DNA of 64,000 bases from Minisyncoccota bacterium (GTDB taxonomy: Bacteria > Patescibacteriota > Minisyncoccia > Phycocordibacterales > JBAZVT01). Within the stretch, counting starts at the first letter, position 1. Every line of letters starts with the position of its first letter. This document shows positions 7,323-61,713 of the stretch, piece after piece. The stretch is from NCBI GenBank assembly GCA_041660745.1, contig JBAZVT010000003.1:1880-65879 (forward strand), read 5' to 3'. Made by a program: the position numbers and the translations under genes. Under the pieces are notes generated by a model. The model was not told the origin of the DNA. It saw only the letters and a program-made list of their open reading frames with translations, and ran no database searches.

Positions 7323-7335
7323 TAAAGGGTATCCA

Positions 7336-7362
7336 CTCCAGGGCAGATCCCTGGACCATTTT
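7336..7362 (+). terminator. Terminator after truB
   Basis: TCCAGGG pairs with CCCTGGA (loop CAGAT), followed by CCATTTTTGG. Confidence 0.6.
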
Positions 7363-7402
7363 TGGAATTCGCAGACTCGCCCAAAACTATAGCAGAGCTA
7401 TA

Positions 7403-7482
7403 GGGTATTTACCCTTTGATGCCTTCCTCGGCTCGGAAGTGAGAAAGGGGACTTTCTCACTTCACTCACTCTACGTCAGCAA
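7403..7482 (+). repeat. Intergenic structured repeat, family A, copy 1
   Basis: GGGTATTTACCCTTTGATGCCTTCCTCGGCTC, then the 12-bp hairpin GAAGTGAGAAAG/CTTTCTCACTTC, then CTCTACGTCAGCAA. Homologous to 30238-30320 (reverse orientation) and 60875-60935. Confidence 0.85.
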
Positions 7483-7490
7483 TAAGAGTC

Positions 7491-29104: not shown

Positions 29105-30094
29105 TTATGTTTCTAAAAGCTCTCGTATCCCATCTTCAATATTCACTGTTGGCTTCCAGTCGAGAAGTTTCTTAGCAAGCGCATTATCAGCAAGAGTGTG
29201 TTTCGGTTCTAAACGTCCAGAAATATGTTCAACGGGACCGCCAATAAGCTCGGCAATTTTATTAATTGAAACATTATTCCCCGCCCCAATATTTATCACC
29301 TCACCCTTCCCCACCTTATCACTTTCCATTGCCAAGATATTTGCTCGCACAACATCACGCACATGAGTAAAATCGCGAGTCTGTTTACCATCTCCAACAA
29401 TAGTCATTGGCTTCCCTACCTGTCGCTGTTTCAAAAAACTCGGGATTACAAGTGCATATGCACCCTCAGAACTCTGCCTCAAACCATATACATTAAAATA
29501 TCTGAGACTGACTGTAGGCACCCTGTACACCTCGCTCCATGTCTTGCAATATATTTCTCCAACATATTTTTGTAAGCCATAGGGACTCTTGGGCATTGCA
29601 GTCATAGACTCAACCAGTGGCATTGTTGGTTGGTCACCATATACAGAACTTGAAGCAGAATAAATAAGTTTTTTGACCCCTGCCCATCTACATGCCTCAA
29701 GCACATTTATTGTTCCGCCAATATTAACTTCGTTTGTTTCCTGAGGATGTTCTATAGAATACTGAACGCGAGGCAAAGCAGCACAATGGAAGACGTACTG
29801 AACATCTTTAAATACTTTCTTTATTGATTCCAGACTACACACATCGGCAATATGAAGTGTTGCTTTTTTGTTCACATTTTCTCTCCTCCCTTCAGATAAA
29901 TTATCTATAATATGCACATTGAAACCTCTTTCAACTAATGCATCAACTATATTAGAGCCAATAAAACCGGCACCGCCGGTTACAACAACTTTTATAGTTG
30001 ATGGCGGGATAGTGACTCGTTTTAGTCTACTTCGTTTTGTATTTTTATTTTTCATTATCATCATAGGAAGAGACATTATAACGTATCTAGACAA
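29105..30094 (-). CDS. NAD-dependent sugar-nucleotide epimerase/dehydratase (SDR), paralogue A
   Basis: VVTGGAGFIGSN Rossmann motif and the YGLQK catalytic Tyr-x3-Lys. The true start is probably an internal Met (MIMKNKN...). Confidence 0.9.
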   Translation of the reverse strand: MSRYVIMSLPMMIMKNKNTKRSRLKRVTIPPSTIKVVVTGGAGFIGSNIVDALVERGFNVHIIDNLSEGRRENVNKKATLHIADVCSLESIKKVFKDVQYVFHCAALPRVQYSIEHPQETNEVNIGGTINVLEACRWAGVKKLIYSASSSVYGDQPTMPLVESMTAMPKSPYGLQKYVGEIYCKTWSEVYRVPTVSLRYFNVYGLRQSSEGAYALVIPSFLKQRQVGKPMTIVGDGKQTRDFTHVRDVVRANILAMESDKVGKGEVINIGAGNNVSINKIAELIGGPVEHISGRLEPKHTLADNALAKKLLDWKPTVNIEDGIRELLET

Positions 30095-30237
30095 CCAGTC
30101 ACTGTGGATTACTCACAAAAACTACACTAGCCCACAGAATATTTTTTTACGCATGAAAAAATAATTTTTATCCACACACAAAGCCGTTCGCTGATAAGCG
30201 AACGGCTTTGTGATTTATTTTTCGTTTTCTTTTTCTA

Positions 30238-30320
30238 TTGCCGACGTAGAGCGAACGAACTGAAAAAGTGCTGACTTTTTCAGTTCTGAGCCGAGGAAGG
30301 CATCAAAGGGTAAATACCCT
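30238..30320 (-). repeat. Intergenic structured repeat, family A, copy 2 (reverse orientation)
   Basis: The reverse complement reads GGGTATTTACCCTTTGATGCCTTCCTCGGCTC, then the hairpin GAACTGAAAAAGT/ACTTTTTCAGTTC, then CTCTACGTCGGCAA. It starts directly after the stop codon of the gene at 30321. Confidence 0.85.
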
Positions 30321-31244
30321 TTATTTCTCCATCTCCAACAGCTCCCTTATCCCCTCCTCAATTTTCATTGATGGTTTCCAGCCAAGTAACTTACGGGCAC
30401 GTGAATTATCTGCAAGGGTGTGTTTCGGTTCAAGACGTGCGGGGATATGCTCTGCGGGACCGCCAATGAGTTTGGCGATTTCATTCACGGAAATATTCTG
30501 TCCGGATCCTATATTAATCACCTCGCCCTTCCCCACCTTATCGCTCCCCATCGCTAAAATATTTGCTTGTACAATATCTCGCACATGAGTGAAGTCGCGA
30601 GTCTGTGTACCATCTCCTGTAATAGTCATCTTCTTGCCCTCACGATGCTGTTTGAGAAACCGGGCAATAACAAGTGCATAAGCACCCTCTTCGCTCTGGC
30701 GAGGGCCGTAGGCATTAAAATAGCGCAAACTGACGGTAGACAAGCCATACACCTCACTCCACGTTTTACAATAGAGTTCCCCGACATATTTCTGTAAACC
30801 ATAGGGACTTTTTGGACTGGCAAGCATACCTTCCACAAGAGGCATTTTTGTCTGATCACCATATGCCGCAGATGAGGCGGAATAGATAAGTTTTTTCACC
30901 CCTGAAGCGCGACAGGCCTCAAGCACATTTATTGTTCCGCCAATATTAACCTCGTTTGTTTCTTGAGGATGTTCTATAGAATACTGAACTCGAGGCATCG
31001 CAGCAAGATGGAATACATAGTCAGCACCTTTGAATAATTTTTTCAGAGCTGTGAAATTACAAATATCTGCGACATGAAGATGTGCCTTTTTATGCACATT
31101 CTTTCTCTTCCCCTCCGAAAGATTATCTACAACATGAACATCGAAACCCTTCTCCACAAGTGCATCTGTTAGATTTGAACCTATAAATCCTGCTCCACCA
31201 GTGACGACAACTTTGATTTTTGAATCATTCTTCAATGCAGGCAT
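30321..31244 (-). CDS. NAD-dependent sugar-nucleotide epimerase/dehydratase (SDR), paralogue B
   Basis: Has the same motifs as paralogue A. The two proteins align along their whole length with most residues identical. Confidence 0.9.
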   Translation of the reverse strand: MPALKNDSKIKVVVTGGAGFIGSNLTDALVEKGFDVHVVDNLSEGKRKNVHKKAHLHVADICNFTALKKLFKGADYVFHLAAMPRVQYSIEHPQETNEVNIGGTINVLEACRASGVKKLIYSASSAAYGDQTKMPLVEGMLASPKSPYGLQKYVGELYCKTWSEVYGLSTVSLRYFNAYGPRQSEEGAYALVIARFLKQHREGKKMTITGDGTQTRDFTHVRDIVQANILAMGSDKVGKGEVINIGSGQNISVNEIAKLIGGPAEHIPARLEPKHTLADNSRARKLLGWKPSMKIEEGIRELLEMEK

Positions 31245-37250: not shown

Positions 37251-37360
37251 TTCTGGCGGCTAGCTACTTTCCCCTCCATAAGAGTATCATCACCGCAAGA
37301 GAGCTTAACTTCTGAGTTCGGAATGAGATCAGGTGTATCCCCTCCGCCATACCACCAGAA
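37251..37360 (-). rRNA. rrf: 5S ribosomal RNA
   Basis: The minus strand reads TTCTGGTGGTATGGCGGAGGGGATACACCTGATCTCATTCCGAACTCAGAAGTTAAGC...CCGCCAGAA. This gives helix I pairing and the conserved CCGAAC / AGAAGTTAAGC loop-B/C region. Confidence 0.9.
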
Positions 37361-37498
37361 CTTAAAATTCGATATATCAAAAAACAAACCTAATAATTAC
37401 ACGGAAATACACACATCTCGCCCATCGCGAGTAGTATATAATTCCATGTAACAGGGTAAAAAACAAAAAATCTTTCTGTGACGTATCACAGAAGTGGA

Positions 37499-40916
<3,418 letters not shown>

Positions 40917-44336: not shown

Positions 44337-44403
44337 CACCCTGTTAAATCCCCTGAGTACAGGGAATCATAGAAATCTGATTTCTATGACATTTAACAGG
44401 GTT
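44337..44403 (-). repeat. Three-way-junction palindromic element, family Z, copy 1 (rplJ leader)
   Basis: The outer stem is CCCTGTTAAAT paired with ATTTAACAGGG. It encloses two hairpins, CCCTG..CAGGG and CATAGAAATC..(G)ATTTCTATG. Confidence 0.8.
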
Positions 44404-44643: not shown

Positions 44644-44705
44644 GCAAGTACCCGCAGAACAATCTTTTTAAAAAATATATAATTTTCTACTAAAACCCTC
44701 CATTA

Positions 44706-44746
44706 TAAAAAGGGTGCGGTCCGCAGCGGACCGCACCCTTTGTTTT
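44706..44746. terminator. GC-rich palindromic terminator
   Basis: AGGGTGCGGTCCGC pairs with GCGGACCGCACCCT, flanked by A and T runs. Confidence 0.8.
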
Positions 44747-44770
44747 CCAACCGAGCGACACAGGTGGTCG

Positions 44771-45031
44771 CTACTCTTCTTGACCGTTTTCAGGGCAGTC
44801 CGGTTCCAACTCACAAGAGAAGTAGTACCCGAGACAGACTCCAAAGAGAATGAAACCAATCGGTCCCCCAACAACAGTAAGAGCCCTGCCCCAGAAGTCC
44901 GATTCCCTTGGCTCAAGATGACTCCGGAAAAGTCCGAAATCCTGCCAAAGAAATATCAAAACGCTCCAGACAGAACAGCAGGCCCAAAGACATGGAAGCC
45001 ACTGATAAGGATTGTGAAAAAAGGCACTCAT
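44771..45031 (-). CDS. 86-aa hypothetical two-TM protein (high-G+C islet)
   Basis: Internal start of ORF 44771..45271, with SD AAAGGAGA 6 nt upstream. Reads MSAFFHNPYQWLPCLWACCSVWSVLIFLW...GGPIGFILFGVCLGYYF. Confidence 0.5.
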   Translation of the reverse strand: MSAFFHNPYQWLPCLWACCSVWSVLIFLWQDFGLFRSHLEPRESDFWGRALTVVGGPIGFILFGVCLGYYFSCELEPDCPENGQEE

Positions 45032-45077
45032 ACAGCATCTCCTTTCCCGAAAGTTCCTACACAGAAGGCAAGTACGA

Positions 45078-45365
45078 TTACTCCTGCATTGGTTTGTGCA
45101 GTATTCTTTCACGCCTCGCAAGCGCCCCCGCAAAATCGTGAGCACATATTGAGATGGGTCCGAAGAGGACCCTGAATATGTACAGACGCCACGATGCCCA
45201 CGAGAATTTCCCCCGAGAAAGATCTGGGAAGAAAACGAACGCAGCGCCGATTGAGTAGCGCAGCCACGCAAGAACCGCGAGGCCTACAACAACAGCAACG
45301 ATCCCGACGGGTACAACCAGACATTCCCACATAAGAATCTCCTTCCAAAAAATAAACATCCACAT
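45078..45365 (-). CDS. 95-aa hypothetical membrane protein (high-G+C islet)
   Basis: Internal start of ORF 45078..45458, placed after the upstream terminator hairpin, with SD GAGGA. Reads MWMFIFWKEILMWECLVVPVGIVAVVVGLAVLAWL... Confidence 0.45.
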   Translation of the reverse strand: MWMFIFWKEILMWECLVVPVGIVAVVVGLAVLAWLRYSIGAAFVFFPDLSRGKFSWASWRLYIFRVLFGPISICAHDFAGALARRERILHKPMQE

Positions 45366-45405
45366 TCTTTCCTCATCCTTTATACCACACCTCATATCTA
45401 ATATC

Positions 45406-45440
45406 AAAAAGACCCGGGCATGTGTATGCCCGGGTCTTTG
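45406..45440 (-). terminator. GC-rich terminator after the 79-aa ORF
   Basis: AAAGACCCGGGCAT pairs with ATGCCCGGGTCTTT, with a T run on the minus strand. Confidence 0.8.
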
Positions 45441-45464
45441 TCCTAATGATTTGGACAAACTACT

Positions 45465-45704
45465 TCACCCCTGAAACATGTTCGCAAGAGCAATGCGCTG
45501 ACCGACACCGACGTATGGCTTCTGTTCAGAAGCAGGGAAACAACCTGCTAGCGGTGTTCCATACCCCTCGGGACCCCACAACGAACCAGGCTTGTGATAC
45601 CCACGTCCACACGATGCGACAGCCGCCAAGTCGCAAGGAGGCAGGCCACTCACATCTGCCCACGTCAGATCGCTCACCTCAGCAGTAACGTAACCGCCAC
45701 GCAT
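45465..45704 (-). CDS. 79-aa hypothetical soluble protein (high-G+C islet)
   Basis: SD GGAGG 5 nt upstream of the ATG, and its own terminator. Reads MRGGYVTAEVSDLTWADVSGLPPCDLAAV...; no family recognised. Confidence 0.5.
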   Translation of the reverse strand: MRGGYVTAEVSDLTWADVSGLPPCDLAAVASCGRGYHKPGSLWGPEGYGTPLAGCFPASEQKPYVGVGQRIALANMFQG

Positions 45705-45783
45705 AGTGCCTCCATAGGTAAAAGAAAAGTTTATTCCGCGAACGCTCTATCACCAGAGTACCATATTGGAAGCATCGTGGGTA

Positions 45784-48700
45784 TTATTCTTCTTTTACCT
45801 CGTGTCCACCTTCAACAAAAATAATTTCCGGCACAACAACTTCTTCCGTTTGTAATTCTAATACCTCTAAAGGTTTATTTAGGGCATCATTTTTTTCCTC
45901 AACAACACCCTCCCCGCTTTCTAAATTATCGGGTTCTTTGTATTCATCGGCAATAGGTGTGGGAGTCTCTCCTTCTGTTTTTTCTTCAGAACTCACAGGG
46001 ACCTCCTCTTCCGTTTTTTCTAAAGTAGTGCTTGCTATTGATGCAGATTCCGTTTCTTCTAACATGGCCATTTGCATAGCACCGAAGACACCATCTTCGT
46101 GTATTTCAATAGCCTCAGAAAGAAGTGCAACAGTCACTGGATCTTCTGCATATGCGAGCTTAGGATTTCCTGACGGCACAGCATCAAACCATGGTGAAAA
46201 ATCGACAAGACCAAAGACTGAATCCCCCACTGCAAGATTATTTTTTATCTCTTCAAATGGCCCCGTCGCGTCACCCCACCAATTTTCTTGTGCGAGGATA
46301 GTATTTTCACCCGTAGAAAGAATGCCGTTTGAACGATTTCCAAATATTTGACTGCGAGCAACCGAAGCACTGTCCCCAAAGAAAAGAATCCCATATTCAT
46401 TACGGGCAAGTGTACTTGAAGCAATCACAACTTTCCCATCATCAAATATCCCAACACCCTCAGCTTCATTATCTGAAATATTTGAATTTGTAATCGTCAT
46501 TAAACCCGATGCCAAACTATTTCCAAATATTTCTACACCTGCACCACAATAAGAAATATCTGCATCAGAAATTTCTGCGGAAGAATTGTCGTATACATAC
46601 ACCCCTACCCCGTCCACACGGGAAATATTTGGACGTGTGACTTGGGCGGTGCTATTGGCATATATAGACAAAGCATCTCCAGAAATATTTGAAAGAGCGA
46701 GGTCAGAAAAAATCCCATGAGAATCCATGTACAGATTAATTCCGCCCGTAGTATTTTCAGCGCGCACGTCAGAAAGAGTGACCTCGGCCCCGTCGTATGC
46801 ATTCACAATGGAATCACCGCCAGAAATACTAGTATCCTGTATCGCAAGCGTACACTGTCTACAGGTGACGGTATCAGTATATGGAGAGCCTGTGATTGTG
46901 CTGTTTGAAATAACCACTGAAGAACTTGCCTGTGCACTTATTCCATCCTCAAGTTTTTTTATTTTTGTATATCCAAATACATTTCCTACAGACCCTGAAT
47001 AAAACTCCGTTGCACCAGTGCCATATTCAGAGAGTTCCCCATTATCAGAAGACCTCAAATCTCCCCCGACAGAATCATCTGTAAATTCAGTAAAAATAAC
47101 TGGATTGTCTGATGTGCCAAGCGACTTGATAGTACCCTCCACAGAAAGTCCTGTTGCATAACTCCCCCAACTTCCATTATCGTAAAATTTTACAATCGTC
47201 CCAGGCAAGAGTGTCAGCGTTGTTCCTGAAGCGACGTGTATATTACCTTCAAACACATACGGACTTTCTTCTGGAGTGAGTATCATATCTTCTGTAAAAG
47301 TTTCCCCTCTATACCACACAGTCGAAACACTGTTACGTGACTTTGGCGTGCCTAGGATATATCCATCTTTTGAATCTTTTCCATTTGCAATTTCTCCGGT
47401 GTTCGCATTCCAGTTTTCATAATCAAATCCCCCAACATACGGCGAGACCCGTTCCATGGTTCTTTTGTCACCAGTATCATTACTCCCCCCTGGCCAACTT
47501 CCTTCAACCAACACTGTCGTGTCTATGGTTGTAGATCCGTAATTTAGATTCAATATAACACCACTATTGTTGAGAGCTCCGACATATACAAGGTCTGCTT
47601 GGATATCTGAAACAGAAGTATTGTCTGTTCTCTCCAAGAGAAAGTAGCCATGGGCAGGAATTGTTTTTGATAATGAAATACGCGGTGTTCCAGTAGCTTT
47701 ACTATTAACAAGAGCCCAGCCCGAAAGATCTATATCATACGGAGTCGTGTTATACAGCTCCAACCATTCATCATTAGCATCAGCCTCTGTGCCCATCCAA
47801 GCAACTTCATTAATAACTACAGGCATCGTCGCAACAGACACACTCACTGCAACAGGCTCAGAATCACCACCTGCATTGTGTGCTGAGACAGTAAATTGTA
47901 AGTCACTTCTATCATCAACAACCACGCTGAGCCCAGAGTATGTGGTTGTAGAAACAAGACCGTTTAAATTAAATGTAAAATATTCAGCAATACCAAGAGA
48001 TTCATCTGCTTGCCAGGTCAACGTCAGGGTTGTTGTTGCAACTAGACAGCCAGTCGAGACGAGAGACTGCGAACACTCAGCGACTGAAAAATTTGTAACT
48101 CCAGGAAGCTCAGGAAGAAACGGTGACGGGATTACAGGAACCTCCGGTTCTCCGGGAGATGCTGTGTGGCGGGATCTATTTGACCCAGAATAAATAACCT
48201 GTGTTGGGTTATAAAAAGGCGCAAACACCCCAGTTGGGAAATTTGCGTCAGCTACTTTTGATTGATCTATAAAGCTCGGTGTAGAATTAAGTTCCAATCC
48301 CTCACCCTCATCAAGGACTGTGGTGATACTATTAGTAGTCTTTGACTGTAAAAAAGTAATTGATTTTATTGCAGACTGTGCAAAAGTCTGAGCACTTTCA
48401 CCTGTCTTTTTCGCAACAACCGTTGCTGTTGTCTTTCCGGTATATCCAAGAACGGAAGCGATATTCCCACCCGTTTGCACTGTCCACAACGTTCCATAAT
48501 TAGCACCCCTCCAGGCGCTTGTCGCAACTTTTGCCACAGGTGCACCTATGTAATCTGAGAAAAGATACGCAAAGCCAATTGGTATAAGTTGAAAAATATT
48601 TTTCTTCGCAAGACCCTCAGCAAGCTCTTTATCCTTCAGCGCCTCTTCTACTTGCTCCTGCTTTTGCTCTGCAAGATATTCCTCGCGCGCCGCTTTCGCC

Positions 48701-60623: not shown

Positions 60624-60827
60624 TTAATTAGCTACGAATGGGAGAAGGCCCATGAAACGAGCACGCTTTACAGCTTCTGAAAGCTTGCGCTGATTCTTGG
60701 AGCTAACACCACTGCGCTTGTGTGATGTGATACGGCCATGAGGATTGAGGAACTTTTTGAGGACCTCTATATCCTTATAGTCTATATGCTTTATGTTGTT
60801 TTGCGCAAAATAGCACTGTTTTTTCAT
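60624..60827 (-). CDS. rpsR: 30S ribosomal protein S18
   Basis: IDYKDIEVLKKFLNPHGRITSHKRSGVSSKNQRKLSEAVKRARFMGLLPF. Confidence 0.96.
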   Translation of the reverse strand: MKKQCYFAQNNIKHIDYKDIEVLKKFLNPHGRITSHKRSGVSSKNQRKLSEAVKRARFMGLLPFVAN

Positions 60828-60874
60828 GTCTGATTTTTTAAGAGCGAAGCGATATAAAAGATGCCAAACTTTTG

Positions 60875-60935
60875 TTGCCTTCCTCGGCTCGGAAATGAGA
60901 AAATTTTTCTCATTTCTCTCACCCTACGTCGGCAA
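60875..60935 (+). repeat. Intergenic structured repeat, family A, copy 3 (lacks the GGGTATTTACCC module)
   Basis: TTGCCTTCCTCGGCTCG, then the hairpin GAAATGAGAAAA/TTTTCTCATTTC, then CCCTACGTCGGCAA. Confidence 0.8.
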
Positions 60936-60945
60936 GAAAAATCGG

Positions 60946-61002
60946 CACCCTGTTAAATCCGCTTCGCGGTATCTGCTTTCCAAGCAGATATTTAACAGGG
61001 TT
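60946..61002 (-). repeat. Three-way-junction palindromic element, family Z, copy 2 (ssb-rpsR spacer)
   Basis: The outer stem CCCTGTTAAAT / ATTTAACAGGG and the flanks CAC...TT are the same as in copy 1. The inner hairpins differ: CCGC-TTC-GCGG and ATCTGCTT-TCC-AAGCAGAT. Confidence 0.8.
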
Positions 61003-61054: not shown

Positions 61055-61507
61055 TTAAAATGGAATGTCTTCAGGGTTAATCTCTTCTTCTGGATATTCT
61101 ATCGCTGGAGCATCTGCCGTCGGAGCCGGTGCGCCTTTCGTATCCTTTTCAGGATATGCGGCACCTGGTGTTCCTCCCTCTTTACGAGGACCAAACTGAA
61201 TTCGGTCTGCAATAACTTCTGTGCGATATTTTTTCTCTCCATCTTTACCATCCCAACTGCGTGTCTGCATTCTTCCCTCCACGAGGATAGAAGAGCCTTT
61301 TTTCATGTATTGAGCTGTTGTTGCAGCTTGATTTCCAAACACTACCACGTTGTGATAATCTGTCGCATCCTGGCGAACACCGCTCTTGTCCTTCCACGTT
61401 CTATTAGTTGCAACTGAGAAGGTGCATACTTTTATACCAGAAGGTAAAGATTTCAATTCTGGATCACGAACCAAATTACCTATGATAATTGCTTTGTTGA
61501 GATACAT
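61055..61507 (-). CDS. ssb: Single-stranded DNA-binding protein
   Basis: OB-fold N-terminus MYLNKAIIIGNLVRDPELK...TDYHNVVVFG and the acidic tail EEEINPEDIPF. Confidence 0.95.
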   Translation of the reverse strand: MYLNKAIIIGNLVRDPELKSLPSGIKVCTFSVATNRTWKDKSGVRQDATDYHNVVVFGNQAATTAQYMKKGSSILVEGRMQTRSWDGKDGEKKYRTEVIADRIQFGPRKEGGTPGAAYPEKDTKGAPAPTADAPAIEYPEEEINPEDIPF

Positions 61508-61591: not shown

Positions 61592-61689
61592 GGTCATTGC
61601 GAGTGCGTCCGAAGCAATCCAGTTTTTCTTGAATCTTGAATCAAATTCCTGGATTGCCACGTCGGAAGACCTCCTCGCAAAGACAGAGG
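61592..61689. repeat. Family C repeat units in inverted arrangement (rpsF-ssb spacer)
   Basis: GGTCATTGCGAGTGCGTCCGAAGCAATCCAG (61592-61622) and CCTGGATTGCCACGTCGGAAGACCTCCTCGCAAAGACAGAGG (61648-61689). Confidence 0.8.
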
Positions 61690-61713
61690 AGAAATATTTG
61701 TAATTAAAGGTAC

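Follow-up and report, generated by a model that had tools for sequence, protein, structure and literature searches.

Family A, a folded intergenic repeat of about 85 nucleotides dispersed among Patescibacteria

Three copies of a short non-coding repeat, termed family A, are found between genes of the window, the 64,000-nucleotide stretch of DNA that was analysed. Copy 1 (7402-7486, plus strand) lies between the convergent genes truB and tlyA. Copy 2 (30235-30320, minus strand) begins at the base after the TAA of an epimerase ORF (30321-31244, minus strand), and copy 3 (60856-60939, plus strand) sits between ssb (61055-61507, minus strand) and rpsR (60624-60827, minus strand), antisense to the rpsF-ssb-rpsR operon. 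An earlier note on this DNA had described three copies with shared flanks and matched changes in the arms of a hairpin, all of them intergenic, the second starting at the first base after a stop codon and the third placed in the ssb-rpsR spacer; each of these statements about the sequence holds, and the positions of the ORFs confirm the intergenic placement. Exact flanks of 15 and 14 nt are common to the three copies and enclose a hairpin of 12-13 bp. The sequence TGCCTTCCTCGGCTC has three exact matches in the window (7420, 30288 on the minus strand, and 60876); when up to three mismatches are allowed, shuffled sequence yields 0.97 matches on average. Matches to the 3' box CYCTACGTCRGCAA lie at 7469, 30238 (minus strand) and 60922, and copies 1 and 2 also share GGGTATTTACCCTTTGA (7403, and 30303 on the minus strand). 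The central stems pair perfectly over 12-13 bp (GAAGTGAGAAAG/CTTTCTCACTTC, GAACTGAAAAAGT/ACTTTTTCAGTTC and GAAATGAGAAAA/TTTTCTCATTTC), the pair at position 4 of the stem being G:C, C:G and A:U across the three copies. Fold z-scores range from -3.2 to -4.4 on the given strand, with similar values on the opposite strand. A covariance model run over the whole window with filters off recovers just these copies, at 84-86 bits (86.1, 83.7 and 84.4 bits for copies 1, 2 and 3, respectively). The next full-length match in the window scores about 11 bits, and matches of up to 22 bits are hairpin-only partials, the best three of which fall on the copies' own opposite strand.

Family A is about 85 nt long and follows one plan common to all copies. 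At the 5' end stands the mini-hairpin P0, whose base is AAG...CTT and whose top varies (GGGT/ACCC, AT/AT or AGCT/AGCT; L084 has a 10-bp version); a T-rich linker joins it to a long interrupted hairpin. The outer stem of the latter, P1 (YGCC/GGCR), can extend into the linker and into the A-rich 3' tail. Within P1, the unpaired 5' strand UUCCUC is succeeded by a short helix (GGC/GCU), by a pair that is G:C or A:U and has a one-base bulge beside it, and by the distal stem P3 of 12-13 bp, whose sequence varies while its pairing is kept. On the 3' side the strand CUCGCUCUACGUC leads to a terminal WTAA, the element ending in ATAA or ATAG. The pyrimidine-rich unpaired strands UUCCUCGGCUC and CUCGCUCUACGUC are almost invariant. 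In copy 1, P0 (AGGGT/ACCCT) occupies 7402-7415, and the TGCC of P1 (7420-7423) faces AGCA (7478-7481); the conserved 5' loop TTCCTCGGCTC (7424-7434), P3 (7436-7447 with 7452-7463) and the conserved 3' strand CTCACTCTACGTC (7465-7477) lie within, and the terminal ATAA follows at 7482-7485. Copy 2, read on the minus strand, has P0 at 30320-30307, P1 formed by TGCC (30302-30299) with GGCA (30242-30239), P3 at 30286-30274 with 30269-30257, and ATAG (30238-30235) as its 3' end. In copy 3, P0 is formed by AAAAG (60856-60860) with CTTTT (60869-60873), P1 by TGCC (60876-60879) with GGCA (60931-60934), and P3 by 60892-60903 with 60905-60916. The element had thus been located correctly but drawn too short, since each copy carries the additional upstream mini-hairpin (60856-60873 in copy 3). 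The proposed outer stem that closes the element pairs in copies 2 and 3, but contains a C.A mismatch in copy 1 (TGCC/AGCA). P0 was judged by MFE z-scores, the unconstrained best-stem test being uninformative in AT-rich sequence; for the P0 regions of 16 copies the mean MFE z is -1.64 relative to shuffles.

When 15 distinct copies from the window and other genomes are aligned, 93% of the cells are paired, and 11 of the 21 base pairs show changes on both sides with pairing kept. None of 500 shuffles reaches the observed covariation, and slid controls give at most 3 pairs. The covariation is found in P1 (UGCC/GGCA to CGCC/GGCG), in the bulged pair (G:C to A:U) and in P3. The view that matched changes point to selection on structure therefore gains its support from the copies in other genomes, not from the three window copies alone. 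The near-invariance of the loops is partly a matter of ascertainment by the exact-match pattern, the invariance of GCCTTCCTCGGCTC, GAANTG and CTACGTC having been imposed by the search; the one copy found by the model alone (L090b) differs at two positions in the 5' loop, and its 3' strand is unchanged.

At least 13 further copies of family A were recovered by exact-pattern scans and then by the model in other Patescibacteria contigs, labelled Paceibacterota, Saccharibacteria (one contig, L084) or unclassified, the other genomes being represented by pieces of 8-21 kb. They comprise copies in the pilC-pilin spacer of five related contigs (L006, L079, L090, L116 and L118), two sites in MAG ELA554 (L074/L115 and L107/L117), further single loci in L096, L113, L114, L119 and L120, the L084 copy, and the model-only second copy of L090 (L090b, L090:2645-2716). 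The contig scan used the pattern GCCTTCCTCGGCTCN{20,50}CTACGTC, whose matches are mostly chance occurrences in high-GC genomes; among the matches listed from it, seven loci are real (L006, L074, L079, L084, L090, L096 and L107) and the window's own genome does not appear. A further 24 pattern matches in viral contigs were rejected as family A, all being coincidences within coding sequence, and a blastn search of phages and plasmids gave no family A match. Copies within one genome share a genome-specific P0, as seen for copies 1 and 2 of the window and for the two ELA554 copies. Direct tandems also occur: two diverged copies lie about 40 nt apart at L090:2645-2828, with a GIY-YIG nuclease gene some 800 nt away, and at L114:891-1038 a good copy is preceded by a degenerate one (23 bits). 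In three contigs (L115:7512-8267, L096:5381-6247 and L120:860-2605) family A adjoins thiol-disulfide genes, encoding a DsbA-like thioredoxin, DsbD_TM and a DsbD_TM-thioredoxin fusion; three such neighbours among about 12 sites are more than we expect by chance, although the sites are possibly not independent.

Comparison with relatives reveals where the element has been gained. The ssb-rpsR spacer measures 227 nt in the window versus 22 nt in L121 (a 922-nt contig with identical S18) and in L146-L149 of the sister lineage, whose RecA is 96% identical to that of the window. The window's own RecA is identical to a protein annotated in a Candidatus Paceibacterota MAG, and the same strain is present in SRR18595301. 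In the two outgroups (RecA 82-83%; L154-L156) the spacer is only 0-2 nt, so the long spacer is the derived state. The distance between the stop codons of truB and tlyA is 168 nt in the window and 7 nt in the sister lineage. The epimerase gene ends in GAGAAATAA, after which copy 2 begins, and the corresponding empty site in sister-lineage contig L157 reads GAGAAATAA|AAAATTAAAAAAG. The cleanest case of a filled and an empty site is provided by the second L090 copy, which is 77% identical to the first, has a different P0, and is missing from four relatives (L079, L118, L116 and L006). The empty site in these relatives is CATTAAT|AAATTTGC, while the filled site is CACTAAT[AAAAGC...GGCGAT]AAATTGC. 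ATAA is thus single in the empty sites and present at both junctions when the site is filled (L090 compared with L079, and copy 2 with L157), and it can be regarded equally as a target-site duplication or as the result of an element with a terminal ATAA of its own inserting 3' of an ATAA. Clean comparisons of this kind number two, the sites of copies 1 and 3 being composite. WTAA stands on both sides of nearly all copies, and in four of the six sense-oriented copies (copies 1 and 2, L074 and L084) the preceding gene terminates with the upstream TAA. Insertion takes place immediately 3' of ATAA, a sequence that in these compact genomes is often supplied by the TAA stop of the upstream gene. A model search of 22 other loci from the sister lineage, the two outgroups and three control contigs (about 360 kb, with many stretches overlapping) found no family A. 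The MITE-like mobility that the earlier note suggested, to be judged by polymorphism of insertion sites, is supported by empty sites in relatives.

Two of the window sites show additional features. At copy 1, the heptamer AGGGTAT is found at 7326-7332, directly after the TAATAA stop of truB, and again at 7402-7408; this 7-nt direct repeat bounds a 69-nt insert (7333-7401) that is nested in P0 and bears a terminator-like hairpin with a T-run (7337-7355). The heptamer at 7326-7332 is a relic left end of copy 1 (plus strand), and its position after the truB stop, together with the repeat that flanks the insert, indicates that copy 1, too, inserted at a stop codon and was interrupted afterwards. 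Copy 2 lies among tandem epimerase paralogues (29105-31244). In the sister lineage (L157:10450-12998) a gene of 169 aa on the opposite strand stands between the paralogues; it is absent from the window, where the gap contains an A-rich stretch and a 16-bp hairpin (30177-30212) in addition to copy 2.

Other small folded repeats are present in the same DNA. Family B (44339-44401 and 60948-61000) has an identical 11-bp outer stem, CCCTGTTAAAT/ATTTAACAGGG, around two inner hairpins whose sequences are wholly different between the copies, so that a three-way junction results; family A copy 3 is the immediate neighbour of the second copy, and both family B spacers are short in the sister lineage. 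A third family, C (53810-53860, 54457-54477, 55887-55911 and 61644-61694), has CTCGCAAAGACAG in common, preceded by a small hairpin closed by TTGC...GCAA (e.g., GGATG-ATTA-CATCC); the spacers that contain it are likewise longer than in the sister lineage. The filled and empty sites of families B and C are too diverged for their ends to be defined. The motif ACAGAGGCTAAGCCTT recurs at 54241, 54549 and 63505. Between 41566 and 64000, the window exceeds syntenic L146 in the length of most intergenic spacers, by +147, +120, +52, +96, +75, +61, +205, +153, +358 and +75 nt, in addition to a segment of 6.5 kb. The pattern suggests that small structured modules have lengthened spacers throughout the lineage, in a genome that is compact in other respects.

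The 6.5-kb segment (44647-51202), which is missing at that locus in the sister lineage, contains a RAYT-like Y1 transposase ORF (50387-51082, minus strand) with the HUH motif PNHFHILL and the sequence YIHLNPVK. It matches Pfam Y1_Tnp at 4.7e-11 and NCBIfam REP_Tyr_transpos at 2e-11, the latter below cut-off. Perfect palindrome doublets, CATAGGACCGCCCTATG-TTTTYA-CATAGGGCGGTCCTATG, flank the ORF at 50340-50382 and 51102-51144, and a half-site of the palindrome is found at 51397-51430. Because this Y1 gene, the only one in the window, is flanked by its own, different palindromes, these surroundings do not identify it as the partner of family A.

The orientation of family A relative to genes is mixed, with about six sense copies (among them copy 2, L074, L084, L113 and L114) and about five antisense (copy 3, L107 between rplB and rpsS, L096, L119 and the pilC-pilin group). 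Beside the three window copies, in either orientation, no recurring promoter or terminator was found, the few matches differing by site, and no consistent -35/-10 of their own. Since GC skew in the window tracks gene orientation, replication-strand bias cannot be deduced from it. Several simple identities were rejected: a coding sequence, because hairpin indels break the frame between copies; an intrinsic terminator, as the main hairpin has no U-run after it on either strand, and reverse-strand P0 with its T-rich sequence is too weak to serve as one; and an rRNA mimic, there being no similarity to the 23S/5S region of the window.

The observations describe a folded element with a conserved core and no terminal inverted repeats, gained at ATAA sites and polymorphic between close lineages. 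On balance, family A is probably a non-autonomous mobile element of about 85 nt, carried by Patescibacteria (CPR) and mobilised as a single strand in folded form. The enzyme that recognises this form, and cuts or joins it, would be provided in trans; folding would bring the two ends of the element together, and the conserved loop strands would provide protein contacts or a guide surface. Were pairing of the stems needed for mobilisation, lineages of the element would accumulate compensatory changes, and compensatory evolution could proceed in the absence of selection at each resting copy. The best guess as to the class of enzyme is an HUH/Y1 single-strand DNA transposase (IS200/IS605- or RAYT-like), which is favoured by the lack of inverted repeats, the insertion beside a fixed tetranucleotide and the presence of the same tetranucleotide at the end of the element. 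A search near the other family A copies found no RAYT homologue.

Conservation across very divergent CPR lineages could, as an equal alternative to a mobile element, reflect a host function. A rival explanation is a structured RNA (a UTR module, or a small RNA gene in several copies), whose dispersal would be secondary; the targets of its pyrimidine-rich loops, CCUUCCUC and CUCGCUCUAC, would be purine tracts of Shine-Dalgarno type, Rho or another protein. Three covarying helices around strongly conserved unpaired strands are the usual signature of a functional RNA, conserved here from Paceibacterota to a Saccharibacteria-labelled MAG. Moreover, CCUUCCUC is exactly complementary to GAGGAAGG, a start codon is found at a distance of 6-50 nt from many copies, and a G.U pair in P2 varies to A-U and G-C, which fits pairing of the forward strand. 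However, the forward strand of P1 and P3 shows 4 G.U against 11 A.C mismatches, so that neither strand is clearly the selected one. Relative to the genes around them, about half of the copies are antisense, some of these lying within ribosomal-protein operons, and the window copies lack the recurring promoter or terminator noted above. The element is also dispensable, since it is missing from each sister-lineage locus examined, and no Rfam family matches it. A structured RNA is accordingly a doubtful explanation, though one to be taken seriously.

It is rather unlikely, but conceivable, that family A (together with B and C) represents an undescribed, Patescibacteria-specific class of structured mobile elements in which the loop is a catalytic core or a guide surface. 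In the first version the loop would belong to an RNA or DNA that cleaves or ligates itself, as retrozyme-like elements do; in the second, the asymmetric internal loop would guide a novel enzyme of single-strand transposition. Such elements would dock on TAA stop codons and so re-expand the spacers of a streamlined genome.

An unlikely relationship is that of a REP-type element moved by the RAYT of the same genome, with family A as one of the hairpin families A, B and C, in the manner of E. coli BIMEs. The RAYT-like ORF and all three families occur together here and are all absent from 14 loci (some 230 kb, in which many stretches overlap) that represent the sister lineage and the two outgroups, but this co-occurrence is based on one genome pair. 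On the reverse strand a conserved GTAG is found 5' of the hairpin, but 6-7 nt from the stem rather than at its foot. The spacers are mosaics of hairpin modules (A next to B at 60856-61000), yet inverted doublets of family A are absent, unrelated palindrome doublets of its own border the RAYT on either side, and no RAYT homologue was found at the other loci that bear family A.

Finally, P3 could be a quasi-palindrome perfected by template switching or hairpin-directed repair, in copies that are otherwise decaying selfish DNA under no selection. Template-switch perfection of inverted repeats is an established mutation mechanism in bacteria, and without selection it could be the source of matched changes in a perfect palindrome within one genome, such as the transversions at one position that distinguish the perfectly paired arms of the window copies; copies in other genomes bear unrepaired transition mismatches on both strands. 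This origin is nevertheless quite improbable for the element as a whole, for template switching cannot explain covariation in P1 and the bulged pair across asymmetric loops that were never "perfected" into pairs, nor does it fit loop sequences and a one-base bulge that are kept across distant lineages.

Patescibacterial genomes are considered to be streamlined to an extreme degree, having few repeats and tiny spacers, and here nearly every spacer in 22 kb is enlarged by small folded modules, of which family A is the clearest. In family A three properties coincide that normally do not: it is gained and lost between close strains as MITEs are, it has no terminal inverted repeats, and, in a pattern reminiscent of RNA that distant CPR lineages share, its stems covary around unpaired strands that hardly vary. 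The CPR makes up a large share of bacterial diversity, and identification of whatever recognises the core could reveal a new mechanism of mobilisation or a host function. Family A would also be useful as a marker of strain-level variation. If it is just another selfish hairpin repeat, it makes a modest addition to the catalogue.

Family A is filed here with the small dispersed hairpin repeats. The Rfam search proposed in the earlier note was run: at the gathering threshold, Rfam 15 reports 23S and 5S only in the whole window. The 23S rRNA gene itself (37251-40906) matches over 3400 nt against a 2925-nt model and contains an insertion of about 475 nt, possibly an intron or intervening sequence; the 5S gene adjoins it, and the 64 kb has no 16S gene or tRNA gene. 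At E<=10, copy 1 and seven other loci gave nothing over the element save one chance match to Clostridiales-2, at 14 bits against a gathering score of 58.6. Full-text searches of the literature, by topic as well as by sequence strings, gave no description of such repeats in Patescibacteria. The earlier note had also considered that the element might be the terminal part of a known IS or MITE family with target-site duplications; ATAA does stand at both junctions, but the 5' A(A)GNNN.. and ..GTCGGCR 3' ends, as delimited by the filled and empty sites, are non-complementary in every copy, so that terminal inverted repeats are lacking, and no known family matches. In testable features family A departs from REP/RAYT systems, classical MITEs, attC sites and every Rfam family, while resembling several of them in part.

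Integron attC sites likewise have conserved short pairing ends and a variable central hairpin with extrahelical bases, act as a folded single strand (as proposed for family A) and sit right after a stop codon. The R''/R' boxes RYYYAAC...GTTRRRY of attC are absent from family A, which ends in YGCC...GGCR and then WTAA with no AAC/GTT boxes; there are no cassette arrays and no integrase context, and the indel is the element alone rather than a gene plus its site. Bacterial MITEs (Correia/NEMIS, RUP and ERIC) are similar in size, intergenic dispersal, folding, presence/absence polymorphism between strains and a short A/T-rich direct repeat at the junctions. Family A differs from them in having neither terminal inverted repeats nor a related full-length IS, and in being conserved in its unpaired internal strands, not at its termini.

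REPs and REPINs (E. coli REP/BIME, Pseudomonas REPINs and Stenotrophomonas SMAG) are also short intergenic hairpins, mostly located 3' of genes or in operons, and share with family A a GTAG 5' of the stem (reverse strand), mosaic spacers and a RAYT-like gene in the genome. A REP has GT[AG]G at the foot of a palindrome of 20-40 nt and a RAYT flanked by the same REP, whereas the GTAG of family A stands at the distance given above and the RAYT flanks are CATAGGACCGCCCTATG doublets. Family A occurs as singletons or direct tandems (L090 and L114) instead of inverted doublets, and its core is conserved across distant lineages while REPs are species-specific. The palindromic elements derived from IS200/IS605 (PATEs) resemble family A in having no terminal inverted repeats, hairpins near both ends and a bulge near the foot of a hairpin; they insert beside a fixed tetranucleotide with a similar one at their own 3' end and no obligatory duplication, and occur in either orientation relative to genes. 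Unlike the left and right hairpins of IS200/IS605, which resemble each other, P0 and P3 of family A are dissimilar; the spacing from cleavage site to hairpin differs from that of IS608, no cognate TnpA was found for family A, and its large, conserved, asymmetric internal loop has no counterpart in PATEs. Among the systems compared, it is nonetheless the palindromic elements derived from IS200/IS605, or the REPs, that family A works most like.
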